NCBI GenBank assembly: GCA_022897995.1
Contig: GCA_022897995.1_4763.1
From: a phage
Reading direction: 5' to 3' (one strand)
Length of the DNA stretch: 64,000 nucleotides
Shown piece after piece: positions 5,956 through 57,799 of this stretch (its first letter is position 1; each line of letters opens with the position of its first letter). Below the pieces are notes generated by a model. It was not told the DNA's origin. It saw nothing but the letters and a program-made list of their open reading frames with translations, and ran no database searches. The position numbers were made by a program, and so were the translations under genes.

Positions 5956-6624
5956 ATGCTTCCAGTGGATTTAATGATTGACTTTGAAAGTTTAGGTTAT
6001 CCGCCTGATGGGGTGGTGATCAATATGGCGGCAATCGGGTTTAAAGAAGATCCGCACAATCCACCTACATTTAAAGAACTGGTTGACAATTCCTTTCTGG
6101 TAAAATTTGATATTCCTTCCCAGAAAGGTGTAAGGGTGTTTGATCATGGTGTGGTTGAATGGTGGAAGAATACCGCCTCAGAAGGCATGAGAAAGCAATT
6201 AATCACAAATGGTACGGAAGTATCAACTAAAGAAGGTTTAGCGCGTTTTAACGCATTCTGTGAATCTGTAGGAGTAGATCCGGTTAAATCCGTAATGTGG
6301 TCACGCGGTAATGCGTTTGATATTCCGTTACTAGTTGATATGATCCGCCGTGCACACAATACACGAGAGACGTTCAGCCTTGAACCTGTGCGATTCTGGA
6401 ATATCAGAGATGTTCGCACCGCCATTGAGCGTACATTGATGCATCGCGGGATGTGTGAGTGTCCGTTACCAATGGGTACGCTAGATGGTTTTATCGCACA
6501 TGATGCAATTCATGATTGCGCTCGCGATATTCTTATGCTAATCTATGCACAACGTTATGCTATGGGTCTGGAAGACCTACCAGAAAATCCAGATCCAAAT
6601 TCAGTTAAGAAACAAAGGGGATAA
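5956..6624 (+). CDS. dexA: Exonuclease A (DexA, DEDD 3'-5' exonuclease)
   Basis: 222 aa from ATG 5956; blocks IDFESLGY, VEWWKN, LLVDMIRR, LEPVRFWNIRDVRT, GTLDGFIAHDAIHDCA match T4 DexA as recalled. Confidence 0.8.
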   Translation: MLPVDLMIDFESLGYPPDGVVINMAAIGFKEDPHNPPTFKELVDNSFLVKFDIPSQKGVRVFDHGVVEWWKNTASEGMRKQLITNGTEVSTKEGLARFNAFCESVGVDPVKSVMWSRGNAFDIPLLVDMIRRAHNTRETFSLEPVRFWNIRDVRTAIERTLMHRGMCECPLPMGTLDGFIAHDAIHDCARDILMLIYAQRYAMGLEDLPENPDPNSVKKQRG

Positions 6625-40696: not shown

Positions 40697-40706
40697 AAAA
40701 TAAGTG

Positions 40707-40766
40707 TTGACGCGGGGAGAAATCCCCGCTATAATTCAACCATCAAAAACAAGTGAGGATTTTATT
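40707..40766 (+). promoter_or_regulatory. PeSL-like promoter cassette
   Basis: TTGACG 40707-40712; GCGGGGA-gaaa-TCCCCGC stem 40712-40729; TATAAT 40730-40735. Confidence 0.55.
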
Positions 40767-48961: not shown

Positions 48962-49430
48962 AATTGATATCTATGCGGGTGGACCTTATCCATCGGGTGA
49001 ATTGAGCAACTTCAATAAAAGACCATTCCGTCTATTTGGTTGCGATATTAACAGCACAGAAGGATTTTTACAGGGATTAAGATTCAAGAATCCAGAAAAG
49101 CAAAGAGAAATCTTTTTGATGCACGGTGGCAAAGCAAAAAGAACCGGAAGAACTGAAAAGATTGAGAATCACATGCTATATTTTCAGGGTCGCCCGATTC
49201 ATCGAATGAGTGAGCATTATTACAGACTGGTACATCTGGCATTTGTTACGATGGCACGGAATAACCCAGAATTTTGTAAAGCATTACTCGCTACCGGAAA
49301 TAAGAAATTACGTCATAGCATAGGTGGAACTGATCCGTTAAAGACTATATTGACCGAATCAGAATTTTGTAGTATCCTCAATGATATTCGTGAACGTTTA
49401 ACAAAACGAGGTGAAAATGTCAATTCTTAA
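48951..49430 (+). CDS. NADAR/YbiA-like domain protein (DUF1768-like)
   Basis: 159 aa; LSNF...PF, STEGFLQGLRF, GRTEK, ALLATGNKKL resemble NADAR family blocks. Confidence 0.5.
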   Translation: MTSEIDIYAGGPYPSGELSNFNKRPFRLFGCDINSTEGFLQGLRFKNPEKQREIFLMHGGKAKRTGRTEKIENHMLYFQGRPIHRMSEHYYRLVHLAFVTMARNNPEFCKALLATGNKKLRHSIGGTDPLKTILTESEFCSILNDIRERLTKRGENVNS

Positions 49431-50913
49431 TATCATTAACCAGCTTGCAGCAACAGACAAAACATCGCTGAAAGAAAAGATTCTGAAAGAATCTGCAAGC
49501 AATGAAACGCTGAAAGAATGCTTTTATCTGGCATATTGCAAACAGGTTACGTTTGGCGTAAAGAAATACGATAAACCATCGCGCTATTCGTCTGTATTGT
49601 CTTTATCCGGTGCATTACAAGTCTTTAAAAATAAACTTGCCACGCGTCAAGTAACTGGTAATGCTGCATTACAGCTAGTTACCGATACTCTGACTTGCTT
49701 GTCAGAAGACGATGCTAAAGTTGCAATGATGGTATTGAATCGAGACCTAGAATGCGGTTGTTCCGCTACCACCGCAAACAAGGTATGGAAGAAACTGATC
49801 CCCCAGCAACCATGCCACCTTGCATCGTCATATTCTGATAAGGCTATTGCTAATATCAAATATCCGGCGTATGCACAGCTTAAAAGCGATGGCGCTCGTG
49901 GTATGGCTGATATTGACGGGGAAACATTAGCAATCTATACCCGTTCAGGTAATATCTATCAGGGACTTGATGATTTGTTTTCTGTTTTAGAGCGTCTACG
50001 AGGCCGTGGAATTGTTCTAGATGGCGAATTGGTATATATGCCTACCCTTTCGCAAACACCAGCGCAGAACTTCGTTGAGAGCGTTTATGATGGTACTCTG
50101 TCATGGATATTTGAAGAAGAGGAAATGCCATTAACGCCAGTAGCGGAAGCAGTGAAAGAATCCGTTGTTGCAGATCGTCAGACCGGAAATGGTATCCTCA
50201 ACAAATCACTGAAAGGAACTATTCCAAAAGAAGAAGCCCAATGTATTGTTTACACTGTCTGGGATGTTATCGACCGTGATGTGTATTACGGAAACGAGAA
50301 AGCAACGAAGCAATATAAAGATCGATTCGAAGAACTAAAACAGATTGTTGAAGAACTTAACGATCCTCGTGTGCAGATAATCGAAAATACTGTAGTTAAC
50401 AATATCGATGAAGCTCGCGAAGTATATCATCGCTATGTAAACATGGGCTTAGAAGGTATTATCCTTAAAAATTTACATGGTGTATTTGAAGATCGTCGCA
50501 GTAAAGATCAGGTTAAATTTAAAGAAGTGATTGACTTCGACGCGGAAATTGTTGATGTATATCCGCATAGTAAAGATCCTAATAAGGTAGGCGGTTTTAC
50601 TGTCCGTAGTGCGTGCGGACGAATGATGACTAACACCGGGTCGGGATTGACAGACACCACAACCGAAAAAGGTGATGATGGTATCGAACGTGTGATTCCG
50701 TTAGATCGTCGAAATGAACTCGACCGAGAAATGTTATGGGCTGACCGTCATAACCTGATTGGAAAAGTCATTGAGATGACATGCAACGGGTATATCCGCA
50801 GCAAATCACGTAAAGAAGATGAACCGGAGTTCTCTTTATTTCTCCCGATCATCAAACGTATTCGCTACGACAAGACCACTGCAAATACAGTAAAAGAGGT
50901 ATTCGATGTGTGA
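49417..50913 (+). CDS. 30: ATP-dependent DNA ligase gp30
   Basis: Adenylation motif KSDGAR, LDGELVY, EGIILK, and C-terminal blocks match T4 DNA ligase as recalled; ATG 49417 preferred over GTG 49411. Confidence 0.9.
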   Translation: MSILNIINQLAATDKTSLKEKILKESASNETLKECFYLAYCKQVTFGVKKYDKPSRYSSVLSLSGALQVFKNKLATRQVTGNAALQLVTDTLTCLSEDDAKVAMMVLNRDLECGCSATTANKVWKKLIPQQPCHLASSYSDKAIANIKYPAYAQLKSDGARGMADIDGETLAIYTRSGNIYQGLDDLFSVLERLRGRGIVLDGELVYMPTLSQTPAQNFVESVYDGTLSWIFEEEEMPLTPVAEAVKESVVADRQTGNGILNKSLKGTIPKEEAQCIVYTVWDVIDRDVYYGNEKATKQYKDRFEELKQIVEELNDPRVQIIENTVVNNIDEAREVYHRYVNMGLEGIILKNLHGVFEDRRSKDQVKFKEVIDFDAEIVDVYPHSKDPNKVGGFTVRSACGRMMTNTGSGLTDTTTEKGDDGIERVIPLDRRNELDREMLWADRHNLIGKVIEMTCNGYIRSKSRKEDEPEFSLFLPIIKRIRYDKTTANTVKEVFDV

Positions 50914-51382
50914 TAATGAAGGGGCGAAAGCCCCTAAACCTAAAAAATTGTCAAAGAAAGAGCAACGCCAGATCCTGAAAATGAAATACGGTGGACGTTG
51001 TGCCTATTGTGGCGAGGAACTAGGGGATCGCTGGCACGCAGACCACATCAAACCAGTATTGCGACGCTCAAAAGTAGTCTATGATGAAAATGGACGAATT
51101 GCCCGTAATGATGATGGATCGTGGAAGTATAAGGTTGTAGGAATGCATAAACCGGAGCACGATATACTTGATAACATGAATCCGGCTTGTGTGCAATGCA
51201 ATCTTTACAAAAGCTGTATGGGCTTAGAATACTGGCGTAAGTGTATACGCGAGAACTTCCAGAAGTACATTCAACGTAACATGGGATTACGTGCGGCTAA
51301 ACGCTTTGGCTTGCTTTCAATCCACGATCAACCAGTAGAATTTTATTTCGAAAAGTACGAGCGCGAGCATCAAGAAAAATAA
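50906..51382 (+). CDS. HNH endonuclease
   Basis: 158 aa; CAYCGEELGDRWHADHIKP...NMNPACVQCN gives the CxxC...HxDH...N...CxxCN HNH pattern; overlaps ligase stop by 8 nt. Confidence 0.65.
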   Translation: MCDNEGAKAPKPKKLSKKEQRQILKMKYGGRCAYCGEELGDRWHADHIKPVLRRSKVVYDENGRIARNDDGSWKYKVVGMHKPEHDILDNMNPACVQCNLYKSCMGLEYWRKCIRENFQKYIQRNMGLRAAKRFGLLSIHDQPVEFYFEKYEREHQEK

Positions 51383-51396
51383 TTCAAAAAAAGTTG

Positions 51397-51459
51397 TTGA
51401 CAGGGGATCACCGATCCCCTATACTACACACATACCGAAACGAACTAGGAGAATCAATT
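51397..51459 (+). promoter_or_regulatory. PeSL-like promoter cassette
   Basis: TTGACA 51397-51402; perfect GGGGATC-acc-GATCCCC hairpin fills the spacer; TATACT 51420-51425; conserved leader. Confidence 0.6.
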
Positions 51460-51639
51460 ATGAACTTCAACGAAATCATCGCTAAAATCCGCTACAACGA
51501 AGAAACCATTGAACTGATGCAAAACAATATCACCAATGGTTATATGATTGCAGCGTCACAAGAAATCATTGATTTGACAGTAGCAGAAAATGCTCAGTTG
51601 AAACATCAACTTTCAACGGCTGGCGTGATTGTTATGTAA
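51460..51639 (+). CDS. Small hypothetical protein (59 aa)
   Basis: ATG 51460 at fixed distance from cassette. Confidence 0.3.
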   Translation: MNFNEIIAKIRYNEETIELMQNNITNGYMIAASQEIIDLTVAENAQLKHQLSTAGVIVM

Positions 51640-51656
51640 TAAAGAGAGGTGACTAA

Positions 51657-51989
51657 ATGGCAAAAGTTCAGGTAGGCGAGGTCTTCAAAATGGAAGACCA
51701 TACCGTAGAAGAGATGAAAGGCGCAGTATTGAAAGTAATTAATTCAATGTGGCGTAGTGTTCTTTACATCAACTTTATCGACGGTGATGTGTGGTGGGCT
51801 AGTGATAACGTTAAATGGGGCGTTAAATGGGACGAAGAAGGCAATATGGTCATCAAGTTCTACAAAGGTCATACTCACTGGTTAGGAACAGAGGATGTTG
51901 TAGAAGTTCTGGCGGTTGATGTTATGCCAGGAGAGATCGAAAGTCTTAGCGGAACCGCAAAAGAAGCATTGACACGCCATTTCGTGTGA
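51657..51989 (+). CDS. Hypothetical protein
   Basis: 110 aa ORF with RBS GAGAGGTGA. Confidence 0.35.
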   Translation: MAKVQVGEVFKMEDHTVEEMKGAVLKVINSMWRSVLYINFIDGDVWWASDNVKWGVKWDEEGNMVIKFYKGHTHWLGTEDVVEVLAVDVMPGEIESLSGTAKEALTRHFV

Positions 51990-52046
51990 TGTAATATAAC
52001 AATCATCGGGAGGGGCAATACTCTCCCACAAATTGAGGATAATATT

Positions 52047-52355
52047 ATGGAACGTACCAATTTGTTTGTAACCGAACCTTTCGTTGAAGGCAACAAGAAC
52101 CTTGCTAATACGGTTATTCTTTACGAAGATTGGATCTTTTACATTGACGAGAATTTAGACGTATATTGTCGTCCAACTCCAAATGACTCATTCTATATCG
52201 AAGAAAACGATACACATAATCATTGGTATAACGGAAACGACGAAACAGACCTTGCTATTGTTCTCGAATCAGGTGTAGAATCGGAACATGCAGATGAAGT
52301 AGCGGATAAATTTGTACAATACGCATATAAAGATAAAGATGAGGATGAAGAATAA
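52047..52355 (+). CDS. Acidic hypothetical protein
   Basis: 102 aa, highly D/E-rich with poly-acidic C-terminus. Confidence 0.35.
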   Translation: MERTNLFVTEPFVEGNKNLANTVILYEDWIFYIDENLDVYCRPTPNDSFYIEENDTHNHWYNGNDETDLAIVLESGVESEHADEVADKFVQYAYKDKDEDEE

Positions 52356-52362
52356 AAAGTTG

Positions 52363-52425
52363 TTGACAGGGGATCGGTGATCCCCTATACTACACACATA
52401 CCAACGAGATATAGGAGAATCAAAA
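52363..52425 (+). promoter_or_regulatory. PeSL-like promoter cassette
   Basis: TTGACA 52363-52368; GGGGATC-ggt-GATCCCC hairpin; TATACT 52386-52391. Confidence 0.6.
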
Positions 52426-52593
52426 ATGTTCCAGACTAAAGCAGAATGCGAAGCATACATTGTAGCAAACCACGGTGAAGACTACCTGAAATTCGATATC
52501 GTAGTAGCACAGAAGATCACCGGAATGGTTGCAAAATATCTGGGTGTTAAAGAAGGTTACTATCCAAGCAACGCACCAGAAATTAACAAATAA
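52426..52593 (+). CDS. Small hypothetical protein (55 aa)
   Basis: ATG 52426 downstream of cassette; below track cutoff. Confidence 0.3.
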   Translation: MFQTKAECEAYIVANHGEDYLKFDIVVAQKITGMVAKYLGVKEGYYPSNAPEINK

Positions 52594-52607
52594 TTTTATA
52601 AAAAGTG

Positions 52608-52676
52608 TTGACAGGGGAGACACCCTCCCCTATAATATACACATCGAAACGAGATACCAATTAGGAGAATCAAACA
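52608..52676 (+). promoter_or_regulatory. PeSL-like promoter cassette
   Basis: TTGACA 52608-52613; GGGGAG-acacc-CTCCCC hairpin; TATAAT 52631-52636. Confidence 0.6.
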
Positions 52677-52928
52677 ATGGCTAACATCGAAACCGCAAAG
52701 AAAATCGCTAAAGACCTGAACGTTAAAGGCTTCCGTAAACTGAAATTACAGCGTGTACGCTACACCATCGGCAAACAGTGCTCTTTCATGAGCGAAGAAG
52801 TTGCTAACAGCCTCATCGATAACCTGATCGCGGCTGGCTGGGAAGTTACGGATCTGAAAACTTGCAGCGAACTGGCTAACAAAGGTCTTTTAGATTCTGT
52901 TACTATCAAACCAATGGGGGCAGCGTGA
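52677..52928 (+). CDS. Hypothetical protein
   Basis: 83 aa ORF downstream of cassette. Confidence 0.35.
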   Translation: MANIETAKKIAKDLNVKGFRKLKLQRVRYTIGKQCSFMSEEVANSLIDNLIAAGWEVTDLKTCSELANKGLLDSVTIKPMGAA

Positions 52929-53641
52929 AACAAAAATTAATATTCTGCAACTTTGACGGATCGGGGATAATGGGGCTAGAATGGGCTAAAGCAGGTCATA
53001 AGGTGATCTGCTTTAATGCTGACGATGGCGACCACGGTACATACAAAAAGTATAATACCAGATTTGAACATCCAAACATTACCTATGTAAACACATGGAT
53101 TGATTTGAACTGGCTGGAAAGAGCAATGGACCTTGAATGGGGGAAACCGGATATTATCTTTGCATTCCCACCGTGCACAAATTTAGCTGTTAGTGGCGCT
53201 GCACACTTTGAACGAAAGAAACGAGAGCAAGGACCATTGATTCAAGTTCATGATGTGAGGGCAGCTAAAATAACCGCTTATTTGGGTGAATGGCTAGGAG
53301 TTCCCTACATGATAGAGAATCCTGTAAGCGTTATCTCTAGCATGTGGCGTAAGCCTGATTACATGTTCCATCCGTGGGAATATGGTGGTTATTTGCCGGA
53401 AGATGATAAACATCCTACGTTTCCTGAGTATATCGCCGCCCGTGATATGTACCCGAAAAAGACTTGCTTATGGACCGGACAAGGCTTTATAATGCCAGAA
53501 AAGAAACCGTTGCCGATTAATAAAGGGTACAGTAAACAGCATTCTAAGCTAGGCGGGAAAGGAACCAGAACAAAGACTATCAGGTCACTTACCCCGCGAG
53601 GATTTGCAAAGGCAGTATTTGAAGCCAATAAGGATCTATAA
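52925..53641 (+). CDS. Truncated DNA C5-cytosine methyltransferase-like protein
   Basis: 238 aa (GTG start overlapping previous stop); motif I-like FDGSGIMG, motif IV-like FAFPPCTNLAVSG (catalytic Cys), motif VI-like MIENPV; no target-recognition domain. Confidence 0.45.
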   Translation: MKQKLIFCNFDGSGIMGLEWAKAGHKVICFNADDGDHGTYKKYNTRFEHPNITYVNTWIDLNWLERAMDLEWGKPDIIFAFPPCTNLAVSGAAHFERKKREQGPLIQVHDVRAAKITAYLGEWLGVPYMIENPVSVISSMWRKPDYMFHPWEYGGYLPEDDKHPTFPEYIAARDMYPKKTCLWTGQGFIMPEKKPLPINKGYSKQHSKLGGKGTRTKTIRSLTPRGFAKAVFEANKDL

Positions 53642-53970
53642 TGAGATTGTTTAAGTATTCTCTAACGTCAAATTACGATAAACAAGGTCATTGCATCCGT
53701 TGCCCTAATTGCCATAGCCATAACATTGAAAGCAAGATCACCGATCATATTGATGGACTTTGGTCGCCAGCAAGCGAGATAGAATACTATTGCGCTGATT
53801 GTGGAATTGTAGTAGCATATTGGGCATACGGATCATATGATCCTTACTTCCAGATGGGAGAGCGTTCAATCCCTGCTCTTATCTGGAGAATTAAGAACAA
53901 TATCCGGCATTCATGGGATGAGTTCTTAAAAGATATTGATTTACGTGATGATCCATTCAGGAGACTATAA
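53641..53970 (+). CDS. Zinc-ribbon protein
   Basis: 109 aa; CIRCPNC...CADCG four-Cys pattern; ATGA overlap with preceding gene. Confidence 0.35.
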   Translation: MRLFKYSLTSNYDKQGHCIRCPNCHSHNIESKITDHIDGLWSPASEIEYYCADCGIVVAYWAYGSYDPYFQMGERSIPALIWRIKNNIRHSWDEFLKDIDLRDDPFRRL

Positions 53971-53971
53971 C

Positions 53972-54487
53972 ATGAACAGATTAACGCCTAAACGCCGTTA
54001 CTATACCAATACTAAAAACTTTGTCATCTCTGTTTATGAGGCGTGGTTAGAAGATGGATATATCAACATGAACCCAGATTATCAGCGTCCTTTAGTATGG
54101 GACACCGAAAACAAACGTATGTTTATCGAAAACCTGATTAATGATTTTCCGGTTGGTGCTATCGCAATGGCTAAGATTGATGATGGCTCTCGCTATGAGA
54201 TCGAAATCGTGGACGGTAAACAGCGTTTAAACGCAATATTCTCTTTCATGAAGGATGAGTTTAGCATTGCTGGTAATGATGATTCTATGCTGTATTACAG
54301 CGATTTTACGCCAGCAGAAAAGCGACGTTTCCGAAATCTCGGACTACCAGCGATCATGATGGAAGAGAGCACACGAGAAGACCGATTAGAGTATTTCTAC
54401 AAAACAAACTTTTTCGGTGTGCCTCAATCGGAAGAACATCGCCAGCACGTAATTGCCCTATTGCAAGATGAGCAATTAAAAAAATAA
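53972..54487 (+). CDS. DUF262/ParB-like nuclease domain protein
   Basis: 171 aa from ATG 53972; NPDYQRPLVW...FPVGAIAM...IVDGKQRLNAIFSF resembles the DUF262 N-terminal domain of GmrSD-type enzymes. Confidence 0.45.
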   Translation: MNRLTPKRRYYTNTKNFVISVYEAWLEDGYINMNPDYQRPLVWDTENKRMFIENLINDFPVGAIAMAKIDDGSRYEIEIVDGKQRLNAIFSFMKDEFSIAGNDDSMLYYSDFTPAEKRRFRNLGLPAIMMEESTREDRLEYFYKTNFFGVPQSEEHRQHVIALLQDEQLKK

Positions 54488-54498
54488 CTAAAAAGTTG

Positions 54499-54563
54499 TT
54501 GACATAACAGAGGGTGTATATCATAATACACCCATACCGAAACGAACTACTAAGGAGTATCAA
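54499..54563 (+). promoter_or_regulatory. PeSL-like promoter cassette
   Basis: TTGACA 54499-54504; GGGTGTAT/ATACACCC 8 bp stem 54512-54533 with CATAAT in loop. Confidence 0.55.
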
Positions 54564-54776
54564 ATGGCTAACATCGAAATCATCATTACCGACGTAACTT
54601 ATGACCGCATCAACGAAATCGGTACTGCATTACTGGAAGATGGAACAACTCGTACCATCAACTACGCAGAATACGTTGAAATGCGCGGTTGGATTAAACG
54701 AGTAGGAAAATATATCCTGATTGAAAAAGACTATTCAGGATACACCTTAGAGCAATTGCTTGATGGTGCATTATAA
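54564..54776 (+). CDS. Hypothetical protein
   Basis: 70 aa ORF downstream of cassette. Confidence 0.35.
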   Translation: MANIEIIITDVTYDRINEIGTALLEDGTTRTINYAEYVEMRGWIKRVGKYILIEKDYSGYTLEQLLDGAL

Positions 54777-54781
54777 TAAAA

Positions 54782-54804
54782 AGGGGGCGTTAAGCCCCTT
54801 TTTC
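54782..54804. terminator. Terminator-like hairpin
   Basis: A-run, GGGGC-gttaa-GCCCC, T-run. Confidence 0.45.
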
Positions 54805-54844
54805 ATAAATATAGGTTTATAGGTTATCAACTAGAGGATATAAA

Positions 54845-56896
54845 ATGTTTAACTTAGAAATCGACGATCTAATGATTGAATCTTTCGAGAAATGGCTGTT
54901 GACGGAAGAGGAAGAAAACTTTGGCAGTATTGCTCCGGTACAGTGCTTAAAGCCTAAGCAGAATCCTAAACAGCTTTTTGCAGTACAGACACGCGATAAA
55001 GATGTGATTGTCCGTCTTTGCAACTTCACCAACAAAACACCTAAAATTGTTCGTATGGGTGACAAGACCGCACATGTTGTACTGTGCGAAATGAACAAAA
55101 GCGGTCGTATTGTACAGCTTAAAAATGGTCTAGGCGATAACCCGATTGCAGTTATGGCAAGTGCTTTTGATGTGGTTATGGAAACAGCCCGTAAAGCGCA
55201 ATTAGACGCTGTTATGTTCCGTTTTAACGTATCCCGCATGAAAGGTAAGACCGAACTGGTTAAGCGCGTTATAGAGCGTTTGGTGCGTCGTACACCGAAG
55301 TTCGAAGTATTCCAGCAGGAAGTAATGACCAGCAAAAAGATCGCTTTGGTTGTTGTCAAGCGTCGCGGGATGGCGATTGATAAGATTAAAGGGATTAAAC
55401 TTGATGATTCCCTGTTCACTAAAGTAGAAAGTGATTTAGGTGATCGCTGGGTATCTAAGGCTACTGGCGAATCTCTGACTAAAGATGAAGCGTATGCGGC
55501 TAGCCTTGCATCAGAAGAAGAACGAAACGCGGAAGCGGAACAACGTGTAGCGGCTAAATCTCGTTTGACTAAAGAAGAAATGCTGAAAACTCAAGCGACC
55601 TATAACAGCGACTATGTGAATCATCCAGAAAAAATTAATCTTAAACCGGAAGAAGATATCACCGAAGCCGAACCTAAGAAACAGTTTAATACTCTGATTG
55701 ATCGTCAAGCCTTAGAACGTTCAACCGCTCGTTCTCTGAATGACTGGACAAGTGATATTATCACTCGCTATGGTTTCATGCGTACTATTTTTGAAAGCGA
55801 AGCCGATGCAAAATACGCAGTAAGCGAACTGGTAAAAGTTCAGGACCAATATGATCCGTTGTCTGCGGAAGTTATCGCAGCATCAATCAAACGCTTAAAA
55901 GAAATCATGAATGAAGAAGTGTTTGAAAACAAGATCACCGCCCTAGCAATGGATCGAGTAGACCAGTCTATGCCAGCAGATGTAAAGGCTGAAATGTTGC
56001 GTAGTCACATCACGCAGATTAAAACCGATGCCCTACGTAATGTTGCTTCCGGTATGTTTGAAGCAATTGCTAGCAACATGGGTGAAATGATGGCAGATAT
56101 TGATCTTGATCTGCCGGGCGCGGAAGGTTTTGTGTTGAGCGAGTATGCCGATGCAGCATACATCAATATGAACAACTTCCTAACCGACCGTAAGCTGGAA
56201 GAGTTTGACGGCATCGCAGATCCAGAAGAATTGGTCAAGATGTGCGATGCACTGGATAATGCCTTCTCTAACTATGGCGTTAAACTTGATCCGGGTACTA
56301 TTCTGTATCGTGGTATGGACTTCCGGTCTCAAATGTGGGAAACTGCACGTAAGCAAAAAGCGTTTTACTTTAAAAACTATGTGAGCACTTCCCTTGCACC
56401 TAACATTTTTGGCGGCTGGAATGCAAACGTGGCTAGTGCCGTTGCTGGTGTTGATTCTATGGCTGGATCTCGCGGTGAAGGTGGCGCTAATGTTGCTTTC
56501 TCCATTGCTGGCGCGGAAAACATCCCTGTATTGCCAGTAGGTAACAAGGCATTTGCTTACAAAGAATGCGAGATTTTACTTCCTCGCGGCGTTGTGTTAT
56601 CCTTTGATACGGTAACTCGTGCCACGGCATCGACGGATTCACAAGAAACTTATTACATTGAGGCACATATTATGAACAAAAATGAACTGGCAGCATTACA
56701 AGAATCTGGCGAGATGATCGCGGACGGTGATGCATTCATCCGTGAAGGTGTTGTTAAACCTGCTTCTGACCTGTCTTTCTCCAGCTTTATTACCGAAGCT
56801 AAAACCGAACGTAAGAAAGCAGATAAGGCAACTCTACGTCAGCTTATCGCTGATCTGGTATCTGTAGACGCAATGCCAGATAAATTTAAAATGTAA
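54845..56896 (+). CDS. alt: ADP-ribosyltransferase Alt
   Basis: 683 aa (T4 Alt is 682); ART triad LYRG...FYFKNYVSTSLAPNIFGGW...ECEILLPRG; position between 30 and the baseplate block. Confidence 0.85.
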   Translation: MFNLEIDDLMIESFEKWLLTEEEENFGSIAPVQCLKPKQNPKQLFAVQTRDKDVIVRLCNFTNKTPKIVRMGDKTAHVVLCEMNKSGRIVQLKNGLGDNPIAVMASAFDVVMETARKAQLDAVMFRFNVSRMKGKTELVKRVIERLVRRTPKFEVFQQEVMTSKKIALVVVKRRGMAIDKIKGIKLDDSLFTKVESDLGDRWVSKATGESLTKDEAYAASLASEEERNAEAEQRVAAKSRLTKEEMLKTQATYNSDYVNHPEKINLKPEEDITEAEPKKQFNTLIDRQALERSTARSLNDWTSDIITRYGFMRTIFESEADAKYAVSELVKVQDQYDPLSAEVIAASIKRLKEIMNEEVFENKITALAMDRVDQSMPADVKAEMLRSHITQIKTDALRNVASGMFEAIASNMGEMMADIDLDLPGAEGFVLSEYADAAYINMNNFLTDRKLEEFDGIADPEELVKMCDALDNAFSNYGVKLDPGTILYRGMDFRSQMWETARKQKAFYFKNYVSTSLAPNIFGGWNANVASAVAGVDSMAGSRGEGGANVAFSIAGAENIPVLPVGNKAFAYKECEILLPRGVVLSFDTVTRATASTDSQETYYIEAHIMNKNELAALQESGEMIADGDAFIREGVVKPASDLSFSSFITEAKTERKKADKATLRQLIADLVSVDAMPDKFKM

Positions 56897-56974: not shown

Positions 56975-57799
56975 ATGTTCAAACAATTACAGGATTTTCG
57001 TCTTTCAGAAGAATCACGCGAATCAATGATGGAACGTATGGATAATTACATAGAAACATATGGCATTGAGGGGATTAATGGTTACATGATCACTGAGATG
57101 ATCAGCGATCAGATTAATTTTGATGATTATGTGAAGATTATCCGCTTCCTTGAGCGTGAGACACAAGATTATGGATTTGTCAAGAAAATCATTAATGTGA
57201 TGTATGAAGTACACTCCGAAGATTTTGGAGATAATGTATTCAAACATTACAAACATAACAACATAACCCCAGCAGAATATAATGCAATCTGTGATTATGT
57301 GTCTGAACAATACGAATGGGTAAATGGTGCTCTCTTAGGGGAAGAAGACATGACCGACGAGATATCAGAAATTGTTGATTTGATGGATTGTGTCATGGAT
57401 AAAACCGAAAAGTTAAACGGTACTCTTTATCGCGGTCAACATCTTGACATTCAGACAATAGAGCGTATTATTGAAGATAAGGAATTTACCTTTAAAAACT
57501 TTGTGTCAACCAGCATGACACCAATCATCTTTGGAGGCTGGCTTTCAAATAGCACTAGCCTTTATTGTGAGAATCGATATGAATCCATGACCGGAAAGAT
57601 GCAACATTCTTGTAATGTATCATGGGTAATTGACGTAAAAGATCATAAAGGTTTTGTTGTTGGATCAATTGCATGGAATCCTTGCGAATGTGAAGTAATT
57701 TTACCGCGCGGGACTTGCATAAAGGTAAACGACGTAGTAGAATCCTTCGGCGATGAGAATCGTAGACAATTTACAATTTTCGGTGAGGTGACTAAATGA
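56975..57799 (+). CDS. Short Alt-like ADP-ribosyltransferase paralog
   Basis: 274 aa; LYRGQHLD...FTFKNFVSTSMTPIIFGGW...CECEVILPRG parallel the catalytic motifs of Alt but without its long N-terminal region. Confidence 0.6.
   Translation: MFKQLQDFRLSEESRESMMERMDNYIETYGIEGINGYMITEMISDQINFDDYVKIIRFLERETQDYGFVKKIINVMYEVHSEDFGDNVFKHYKHNNITPAEYNAICDYVSEQYEWVNGALLGEEDMTDEISEIVDLMDCVMDKTEKLNGTLYRGQHLDIQTIERIIEDKEFTFKNFVSTSMTPIIFGGWLSNSTSLYCENRYESMTGKMQHSCNVSWVIDVKDHKGFVVGSIAWNPCECEVILPRGTCIKVNDVVESFGDENRRQFTIFGEVTK

Follow-up and report, generated by a model that had tools for sequence, protein, structure and literature searches.

PeSL elements, composite promoter/stem-loop repeats that bound ORFan cassettes in phages RB49 and phi1, have been described together with their role in modular shuffling (Arbiol et al. 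2010, PMC2839356). A compact cytosine methylase has been studied in phage K42, a KarlJaspers-like member of the Drexlerviridae: K42 Dcm is the trigger of retron Ec86/Eco1 and raises 5mC on msDNA, as measured by LC-MS, its catalytic mutant has no effect, and phages without the gene escape the retron (bioRxiv 10.1101/2023.08.16.553469). DUF262 domains with YQR and DG(K/Q)QR motifs form the N-terminal part of GmrSD, BrxU and SspE, which also possess a C-terminal His-Me (DUF1524/HNH) nuclease domain. A cytosine methylase encoded by a phage sets off Dazbog, a defense with DUF262 in its first gene (10.1101/2022.08.27.505566).

Here, we analyze a 64,000-nucleotide stretch of phage DNA (the window) in which the same PeSL repeats bound a block encoding a Dcm-like methyltransferase (ORF1), a zinc-ribbon protein (ORF2), and a DUF262 protein (ORF3). 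The region is probably an early accessory cassette of four co-transcribed, translationally coupled, and functionally independent genes, with ORF1 acting as an orphan C5-cytosine methyltransferase.

A PeSL-bounded cassette in an RB49-like phage

The source phage is an RB49-like (Krischvirus) T4-like coliphage, and the window belongs with the Krischvirus RB49/JSE/Phi1 group, at 96-97% nucleotide identity. The block is located in the hyperplastic region flanked by gene 30 (ligase) and alt, which also harbors ORFan192 (PMC2839356); the genes lie outside the T4 core, as an earlier note on this DNA had proposed. The three ORFs described in that note are all present on the + strand with their motifs, and the block is composed of the following features:

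52599..52660, + strand: PeSL regulatory cassette, predicted to serve the four-gene unit as early promoter and to terminate upstream transcription (12/12 sigma-70 consensus at 52608-52636)
52677..52928, + strand: 83-aa ORF (= RB49p190), which opens the unit (phrog_14908, E 6.5e-58; no Pfam family)
52925..53641, + strand: ORF1, compact Dcm-like C5-cytosine DNA methyltransferase (= RB49p189), 238 aa
53641..53970, + strand: ORF2, 109-aa zinc-ribbon protein (= RB49p188; phrog_2993, E 9.5e-34)
53972..54487, + strand: ORF3, stand-alone mini-DUF262/ParB-Srx-fold protein (= RB49p187), 171 aa from ATG (PF03235, E 4.2e-20)
54490..54564, + strand: next PeSL cassette, closing the four-gene unit (11/12 promoter match at 54499-54527; repeat family D1/D3)

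The PeSL at 52599 is composed of an A-rich tract, a -35 TTGACA, a -10 TATAAT, and a conserved leader, with a GC stem-loop (GGGGAG..CTCCCC) positioned within the promoter spacer. The PeSL pattern matches four times in the window against 0.01 expected, and the element belongs to a repeat family with copies at 51388, 52354, and 54490. The element at 54490, the same in RB49 and kaaroe, opens the following unit, which comprises a 70-aa ORF and then alt. No PeSL is present between the 52599 and 54490 elements, an arrangement identical to that of RB49. The 83-aa ORF, ORF1, ORF2, and ORF3 form one cassette bounded by PeSL elements, known shuffling units of RB49-type genomes, and we infer that it is expressed early. 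Whereas the cassettes described previously are typically single ORFans (PMC2839356), this one contains four genes, two with recognizable domains. The RB49p186 cassette, its neighbor in RB49, is cleanly absent here.

The stop codon of the 83-aa ORF overlaps the GTG start of ORF1; among the ORF1-family and ORF3-family loci examined, this first gene occurs only in Krischvirus. An Rfam scan of 51300-55000 returned no RNA family. Reverse-strand ORFs of the region are short and nested within coding genes.

ORF1, a compact Dcm-like cytosine methyltransferase

ORF1 contains motif I (FDGSG, residues 10-14), motif IV (FAFPPC, with Cys84), and motif VI (IENPV, 130-134). FDGSG, PPC, and ENP are invariant in 41/41 homologs, with F10, G12, S13, and G14 conserved in motif I, P82-P83-C84-T85 in motif IV, and E131-N132-P133, an ENP variant of ENV, in motif VI. 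Alignment by hhalign places the motif I loop on FAGLGG of M.HhaI and Cys84 on its catalytic Cys81, ending after motif IV. The match to phrog_757, 'DNA methyltransferase', covers residues 1-237 (E 1.3e-90), and the RefSeq name of the RB49 counterpart is likewise 'DNA methyltransferase'. Against Pfam PF00145, ORF1 scores 13.5 bits, under the cut-off of 22, over residues 10-100 only (the N-terminal third). An NCBIfam search matched neither ORF1 nor ORF3, and PDB sequence searches returned nothing relevant, whether run with the single ORF1 sequence or with a profile of 41 sequences. The link to C5-cytosine DNA methyltransferases came only from fold comparison, in which the catalytic domain agrees with theirs. 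Because the Pfam score is sub-threshold and NCBIfam and PDB sequence searches gave no match, membership of ORF1 in the classical family rests on structure and motifs. Significant profile matches nevertheless exist for both proteins that the earlier note had assigned to families, phrog_757 for ORF1 and PF03235 for ORF3, with PF00145 falling short, and the motif matches of both lie far above chance level.

Compared with canonical C5-methylases (PF00145: M.HhaI, E. coli Dcm, and the catalytic domain of DNMT3A/3B), ORF1 is ~90 residues shorter than M.HhaI, has Thr rather than Gln after the catalytic Cys, lacks a recognizable motif VIII (QxRxR), and has motifs IX and X apparently merged in one C-terminal RSLTPRGFAxAV helix. 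Past motif VI, a conserved WRKP (R142) is followed by a ~70-residue insert and this single terminal segment, whose RSLTPR is invariant or nearly so in the homolog alignment; the C-terminus reads RSLTPRGFAKAV. The insert (roughly 141-215) is highly conserved, occupies the position of the target-recognition domain (TRD), and is about as large as the minimal TRD found in DNMT3 enzymes. Given this insert, the earlier statement that ORF1 has no TRD holds only in part.

Homologs of ORF1 were counted in 7328 clusters and 1525 phage records, with 1174 representatives at 50% identity; almost all are between 200 and 260 aa long. At 238 aa, ORF1 has the usual length of its family, and its description as truncated was mistaken. 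A truncated pseudogene was rejected on the basis of thousands of same-length homologs, invariant catalytic motifs, and a GTG start that fits the homolog N-termini.

The family has an experimentally studied member. ORF1 shares 56% identity (E 5e-92) with SECphi27 gp14 (711 bp, 236 aa), in which Cys82, Glu128, Lys175, and Lys176 are the exact positions mutated in K42 Dcm; these residues (C82/E128/K175-176) correspond to C84/E131/K177-178 of ORF1, all four conserved. K42 Dcm and ORF1 belong to the same family (BASEL 'Dcm-like C5 cytosine methyltransferase', phrog_757), have the same compact size (236 versus 238 aa), and are both encoded by orphan genes of the early or replication region. They differ in context: K42 is a T1-like siphovirus, whereas ORF1 is found in a T4-like myovirus and shares its PeSL cassette with genes unrelated to it. 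Its structure, together with its homology to a phage Dcm of demonstrated activity, supports ORF1 as C5-cytosine-methyltransferase-like, in line with the first assignment. Though small, ORF1 is a complete cytosine DNA methylase from a family common among phages, and it is presumably active in this phage.

The best reading for ORF1 is a DNA-modification/anti-restriction role. SAM would be bound via the FDGSG loop, Cys84 of the PPC motif would attack C6 of a flipped-out cytosine with Glu131 of ENP assisting, and the short conserved insert would replace the large target-recognition domain. Produced early in infection, ORF1 would mark a limited number of sites that probably resemble CCWGG, a specificity assumed for the compact Dcm family from the name 'Dcm' and msDNA mutagenesis. 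This marking may protect phage DNA against EcoRII-type restriction enzymes, which are 5mC-sensitive, and so add to the strong restriction-site avoidance of a cytosine-unmodified genome. The 64-kb window contains zero EcoRI, HindIII, and TCCGGA sites, and 22 CCWGG sites against 66 expected; this threefold depletion argues that any protection by ORF1 is incomplete. The price of marking could be exposure to cytosine-methylation-sensing defenses, such as retron Ec86.

E. coli B is a routine host of RB49-type phages. BL21(DE3), a derivative of the E. coli B lineage, has a native retron Ec86 (bioRxiv 10.1101/2023.08.16.553469), and growth on this lineage would be unexpected were ORF1 a strong Ec86 trigger.

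It is quite unlikely that ORF1 is, in this phage, something other than a DNA cytosine methylase, such as a silent SAM-binding protein, a DNMT2-type RNA m5C methyltransferase, or an other-group C5 transferase. Such a protein would fit the Pfam score under threshold, the detection of only motifs I-IV by sequence, the cutting of RB49 DNA by HpaII and NheI (PMC4041780), and HPLC/MS of Krischvirus TB34 DNA, which revealed no modified nucleoside (PMC13390438). However, the whole family retains the catalytic Cys, the Glu, and the SAM loop unchanged, and a homolog with the same residues makes 5mC on DNA in vivo. The missing 5mC in HPLC may be accounted for by low site density: methylation at CCWGG alone would involve just 0.17% of cytosines, as computed, and might escape HPLC/MS.

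Krischvirus SAP has been reported with unexplained glucosyl-hydroxymethylcytosine (PMC13390438). ORF1 was rejected as its source, since the near-identical TB34 is unmodified, the SAP profile is that of the co-studied Tequatrovirus phages (PMC13390438), and a site-specific methylase is unable to replace all cytosines.

The zinc-ribbon and mini-DUF262 proteins

ORF2 possesses two cysteine pairs, Cys21-x2-Cys24 and Cys51-x2-Cys54, plus a fifth, Cys18, confirming the zinc ribbon recognized earlier; its match to Pfam Zn_Ribbon_TF is sub-threshold (21.9 bits, cut-off 29). Homologs are present in 9g-like, JenP1-like, and FelixO1-like phages, where they do not adjoin methylase or DUF262 genes.

ORF3 matches Pfam PF03235 (GmrSD_N) well above the cut-off of 33.2 bits, with a score of 73.1 bits (about E 4e-20). 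Its motifs YQR (37-39, in YQRPLVW), DGKQRL (81-86, in VDGKQRL), and GVPQSEEH (149-156) are invariant across the family, and two PADLOC defense models, NsnA (E 1e-20) and PD-T4-2_A, match the protein. Foldseek searches with the AF2 model (pLDDT 84.8) revealed BrxU as the best match, followed by ParB/Noc CTPase domains. The fold is that of the N-terminal domains of the ParB/Noc/KorB CTPases (ParB/Srx superfamily; Foldseek probability 0.99-1.0, TM about 0.45), with a basic nucleotide-binding motif at an equivalent position, but ORF3 lacks their HTH DNA-binding and dimerization domains and shares only 11-15% identity with them.

Family members are stand-alone proteins of 165-195 aa, with any extensions N-terminal only. 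ORF3 itself ends at residue 171, directly after the DUF262 core, and neither it nor any family member carries a DUF1524/HNH nuclease domain or a C-terminal extension. In contrast to GmrSD, BrxU, and SspE, with which it shares the YQR and DG(K/Q)QR motifs, ORF3 is phage-encoded and less than one-third of their length. ORF3 is thus a genuine stand-alone mini-DUF262/ParB-like domain; because the His-Me nuclease domain is missing, it is neither a GmrSD enzyme nor a restriction enzyme and is unable to cut DNA by the known GmrSD-type mechanism. The DUF262 assignment of the earlier note holds, and the resemblance to GmrSD-type nucleases extends to the N-terminal half only. The one truly uncharacterized element is the mini-DUF262. 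As a predicted nucleotide-binding ParB/DUF262 domain without a nuclease, ORF3 would most plausibly bind an NTP together with either DNA or a DUF262-type protein of the host, and it may serve as an anti-defense factor.

A split modification-dependent nuclease, formed by ORF3 alone or with ORF2 and directed against competing T-even phages, whose DNA is hydroxymethylated or glucosylated, is highly improbable. In GmrSD-type enzymes, DUF262 forms the sensor/NTPase half, the PADLOC matches would suit such a role, and the phage's own DNA would be immune, RB49 DNA being without hmC (PMC4041780). The nuclease half, however, is absent from the entire ORF3 family, and ORF2 is never linked to ORF3 elsewhere. 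ORF2 was rejected as the missing half of a split GmrSD: searches of Pfam, NCBIfam, PHROGs, and PADLOC gave it no nuclease profile match, and ORF2 and ORF3 have unrelated distributions among phages.

Linkage of the genes and readings of the cassette

The earlier note took the co-occurrence of the three genes to suggest a joint function. Tblastn searches with ORF2 and ORF3 revealed homologs within 6 kb at 0/81 ORF1 loci outside Krischvirus, and searches with 41 ORF1-family members and ORF2 revealed homologs within 5 kb at 0/53 ORF3 loci outside Krischvirus. The three families have separate phage distributions. ORF1 homologs elsewhere usually neighbor helicase and HNH genes, and in RB43, Slopekvirus, and ST64B the genes next to ORF3 homologs are unrelated; neighbor clustering recovered lineage synteny only, with nothing common across lineages near ORF3 homologs. 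RB49 and kaaroe have additional ORFs lying between the three genes. A three-gene functional module was rejected on the two negative tblastn tests: methylase, zinc ribbon, and DUF262 do not form a conserved module, and the proposal of joint function fails.

Within Krischvirus, ORF1, ORF2, and ORF3 are kept together and tightly coupled in about 57 records, which leaves room for a lineage-specific functional link. Such a system, in which ORF1 would methylate phage cytosines and ORF3, perhaps with ORF2, would shield the 5mC DNA from GmrSD/BrxU and Dazbog as a decoy or dominant-negative partner, is unlikely. It draws on the co-transcription of the three genes from a single PeSL promoter, on their start and stop codons, which overlap or abut, on the sensing of modified cytosine by host DUF262 systems, with BrxU matching ORF3 best in structure, and on the activation of Dazbog by a phage cytosine methylase (10.1101/2022.08.27.505566). 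Two more cytosine-unmodified T4-like clades with mini-DUF262 also have a canonical C5-methylase elsewhere in the genome, namely RB43 ORF127c (PMC1524935) and the Dcm of KP15/KP27 (PMC5219037, PMC3620542). Against it stand the lack of neighborhood linkage outside Krischvirus, the inserted ORFs, and ST64B, which has mini-DUF262 without an annotated methylase; moreover, most of the 1525 mini-Dcm phages have no DUF262 gene, the mini-DUF262 gene occurring in 306 phage records, mostly of other groups. A further proposal is rather improbable as well: the ORF3 family would be a new class of phage anti-defense factor, a nuclease-less mimic of the GmrSD/BrxU/Dazbog sensor domain that poisons or out-competes those enzymes, so that hmC-free, cytosine-methylating T4-like phages (Krischvirus, RB43-like, and KP15-like) keep their C5-methylase unrestricted.

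The likeliest reading is that ORF1 serves as an orphan anti-restriction methylase, with ORF2 and ORF3 each an independent accessory gene. The locus is an ordinary one, mostly annotated already, with a methylase named in RefSeq for RB49 and no new modification system; the gene trio is a lineage-specific juxtaposition at a known shuffling hot-spot. Phage therapy makes use of RB49-like phages, whose DNA is usually described as unmodified. If functional early, ORF1 would alter sensitivity to EcoRII-type restriction, retron Ec86, and 5mC-dependent defenses. The compact Dcm-like family is present in about 3% of sequenced phages, and the mini-DUF262 family in about 300 phage genomes.

Locus organization

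The window belongs to a Krischvirus and is 96-97% identical at the nucleotide level to JSE, RB49 and Phi1. Between gene 30 (DNA ligase, 49411-50913) and alt lie three plus-strand genes, the counterparts of RB49p189, p188 and p187, exactly where the earlier note had placed them.

52925-53641, + strand: ORF1, Dcm-like methylase gene, 238 aa; GTG start overlapping the stop of the upstream 83-aa ORF
53641-53970, + strand: ORF2, zinc-ribbon gene, 109 aa; ATG overlapping the ORF1 stop
53972-54487, + strand: ORF3, mini-DUF262 gene, 171 aa counted from its ATG

A 158-aa HNH endonuclease ORF (50906-51382; Pfam HNH E 5e-6; phrog_2118) overlaps the end of the ligase gene and is the counterpart of RB49 ORFan192, which forms encapsidated PeSL mini-circles (Arbiol et al., PMC2839356). 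On the other side lie two consecutive Alt-like ADP-ribosyltransferase genes, the full-length alt (54845-56896) and a 274-aa paralog (56975-57799) that resembles the Alt C-terminal domain; the motif FKNYVSTS / FKNFVSTS is common to both.

ORF1, a compact Dcm-like methylase

By homology we identify ORF1 as a C5-cytosine methyltransferase of the compact Dcm-like type, full-length and a new member of an already annotated family: RB49p189 is named 'DNA methyltransferase' in RefSeq, and other records call the homolog 'Dcm' or 'putative C-5 cytosine DNA methylase'. The C5-methyltransferase-like motifs are confirmed as FDGSG (residues 10-14), FAFPPC with Cys84, and IENPV (130-134). Profile searches support the assignment in PHROGs, where the full length matches phrog_757 'DNA methyltransferase' (E 1.3e-90), but not in Pfam, where PF00145 matches the N-terminal part only at 13.5 bits, below the cut-off of 22, or in NCBIfam, which returned no match. 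The family comprises 7328 clusters at 90% identity and 1174 representatives at 50%, with homologs in 1525 of 50,697 phage records, T1-like, HK578-like, rV5-like and phiKO2-like phages among them. Because nearly all members measure 200-260 aa, 238 aa is the native family size, and the earlier description of ORF1 as truncated is wrong.

A 41-member alignment reveals invariant F10, G12-S13-G14, P82-P83-C84-T85 and E131-N132-P133, most positions of LGGK..TK.IRSLTPR being invariant as well. Conservation is also high along a ~70-residue stretch between 141 and 215, which stands at the place of the target-recognition domain that ORF1 was said to lack, so that statement holds only in part. DNMT3A is the first-ranked Foldseek match, and alignment of the ORF1 profile with the M.HhaI sequence (checked against 10mh) pairs FDGSG with FAGLGG, and Cys84 with the catalytic Cys81. 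PDB sequence searches with ORF1 found nothing; we therefore read the family as a divergent, compact branch of C5-methylases. In unrelated phages, a compact Dcm-like gene is often found within 1-2 kb of HNH/AP2-type homing endonuclease genes and adjoining an SNF2-like helicase (L003, L004, L086 and ~23 IMG/VR loci), a hint that it moves together with mobile endonuclease cassettes.

An experimentally studied homolog is the 711-bp dcm of K42, a KarlJaspers-like drexlervirus, examined in a retron Ec86 preprint (10.1101/2023.08.16.553469). There, dcm was lost or disrupted in phage mutants escaping Ec86, and K42 Dcm expression increased 5-methylcytosine on msDNA (LC-MS); neither effect was seen with a C82A/E128A/K175A/K176A mutant. 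In that study K42 Dcm was modelled on DNMT3A, and the CCWGG specificity claimed for it was deduced from the name and msDNA mutagenesis rather than mapped. SECphi27 gp14 (711 bp, 236 aa; DNA 95.8% identical to the BASEL FritzSarasin 'Dcm-like' gene) carries Cys82, Glu128, Lys175 and Lys176 at the exact positions mutated in K42 Dcm. ORF1 shares 56% identity with gp14 (E 5e-92) and has the equivalent Cys84, Glu131 and Lys177/178; this match and these residues place it, by sequence, in a family with a demonstrated 5mC-forming member.

HpaII and NheI cut RB49 DNA (PMC4041780), and HPLC/MS of Krischvirus TB34 detected no modified nucleoside (PMC13390438). The window holds 22 CCWGG sites against 66 expected; methylation of them all would modify a computed 0.17% of cytosines, a fraction that bulk analysis, at the detection limit we infer, could plausibly miss. 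Restriction-site avoidance in the genome is strong and general: AAGCTT (HindIII), GAATTC (EcoRI) and TCCGGA have zero sites in 64 kb (15-25 expected each), CCSGG (11 versus 36 expected) and GGCC (31 versus 79) are depleted about threefold, and GATC is undepleted (341 versus 338). A site-limited methylase would complement such avoidance, and ORF1 is most likely an orphan anti-restriction enzyme.

A role as a strong Ec86 trigger fits awkwardly with growth on E. coli B, the routine propagation host of RB49-type phages (PMC4041780 among sources), whose derivative BL21(DE3) has retron Ec86 as a native element (10.1101/2023.08.16.553469). DNA modification is reported for Krischvirus SAP (OZ034687.1; hit H27), whose ORF1 is 98.7% identical: SAP DNA carries hmC and gentiobiosyl-hmC, with no known pathway genes, and the 99.96%-identical TB34 is unmodified (PMC13390438). 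Since seven Tequatrovirus phages studied alongside have the same profile as SAP (PMC13390438), a mixed stock seems a more likely cause than the ORF1 methylase.

ORF3 and ORF2

The DUF262 assignment of ORF3 is borne out by YQRPLVW, VDGKQRL and a PF03235 match of 73.1 bits (Pfam cut-off 33.2); PADLOC adds matches to its models NsnA and PD-T4-2_A. A structure model built from a shallow alignment (pLDDT 84.8, best of five) has BrxU as its best structural match, followed by ParB/Noc/KorB CTPase N-domains. Family proteins at 55 viral loci are stand-alone (165-195 aa), a few with N-terminal extensions and none with a C-terminal nuclease. Because that nuclease defines GmrSD enzymes, the GmrSD-type reading fails, and ORF3 is a nuclease-less mini-DUF262 protein. 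The 306 phage records with homologs (35-39% identity) are chiefly those of other hmC-free T4-like phages (RB43-like, Slopekvirus/KP15-like, Cronobacter and Enterobacter phages), plus temperate ST64B. YQR, VW, DGKQRL and the C-terminal GVPQSEEH are invariant across the family. GVPQSEEH (window 54416-54439) defines the mini-DUF262 subfamily; it is probably the third conserved DUF262 motif, its proximity to DGKQRL probably reflecting loss of the Pfam model's long insert.

ORF2 has the expected four-Cys zinc ribbon (CxxC...CxxC, Cys21/24 and Cys51/54) and a fifth cysteine, Cys18. It matches phrog_2993 (PHROGs), with a sub-threshold TFIIB-type zinc-ribbon match in Pfam, a match that RB49ORF188c had been credited with by 2006 (PMC1524935). 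Homologs are found in 9g-like, JenP1-like and FelixO1-like phages.

A PeSL-bounded cassette

The earlier note took co-occurrence of the trio to suggest a DNA (or nucleotide) modification or anti-restriction function. Outside Krischvirus, ORF2 or ORF3 homologs accompany ORF1 homologs at 0/81 loci (+/- 6 kb), and ORF1-family members (41 queries) or ORF2 accompany ORF3 homologs at 0/53 (+/- 5 kb). A helicase usually adjoins ORF1 homologs, often with HNH endonucleases nearby; in RB43, Slopekvirus and ST64B, unrelated neighbours surround the ORF3 homologs. Spacing is variable even within Krischvirus, RB49 having an extra gene, p189.1, before ORF1. We therefore reject a three-gene module. A proposal that DUF262 protects methylated phage DNA has low probability and stays alive because of a weak, phylogenetically confounded genome-level association with C5-methylases: RB43 and KP15/KP27 carry a mini-DUF262 plus a canonical-size C5-methylase elsewhere in the genome. 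ST64B has the DUF262 gene with no annotated methylase. Host DUF262-containing systems, Dazbog (10.1101/2022.08.27.505566) and BrxU, sense cytosine modification.

Adjacency of the trio is instead a Krischvirus-specific feature of an early cassette bounded by PeSLs (promoter-early stem-loops), not a conserved system. A repeat search revealed this composite element. It combines an A-rich tract, TTGACA and TATAAT/TATACT boxes whose spacer holds a GC stem-loop, and a conserved leader that includes a Shine-Dalgarno site, AGGAG.

51388-51462: PeSL copy
52354-52428: PeSL copy
52588/52599-52660: PeSL copy
54490-54564: PeSL copy
near 40706-40733: weaker PeSL copy

The pattern matches four times in the window, where chance would give 0.01 matches, and the promoters score 11-12 of 12 in a promoter scan. 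PeSL cassettes are reported in RB49 and phi1, where the elements serve both as strong early promoters and as terminators and mediate modular ORFan shuffling in hyperplastic regions (PMC2839356). Since the 83-aa ORF and ORF1-3 form one block, delimited by the PeSLs at 52599 and 54490 and free of internal copies, they probably constitute one predicted early transcription unit; the block arrangement in RB49 is identical. Co-transcription here reflects cassette history, not shared function.

The stems at 51402-51420 and 52368-52386, in two PeSL copies, are mutually complementary. Near-identical phages differ at the cassette level: the RB49p186 cassette (PeSL plus 59-aa ORF; L001, the RB49 locus, 6132-6453) is cleanly absent from the window, compared at 54487-54564, as is RB49p189.1. 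In kaaroe (L002 4616-4795), a further ORF of 59 aa separates the zinc-ribbon gene from the DUF262 gene. Identical 17-nt start regions (52676-52692 and 54563-54579) occur in the 83-aa ORF and in the 70-aa ORF before alt, each the first gene after its own PeSL, and both proteins begin with MANIE; homology of the PeSLs therefore reaches into coding sequence, as expected if inter-PeSL recombination swaps cassettes.
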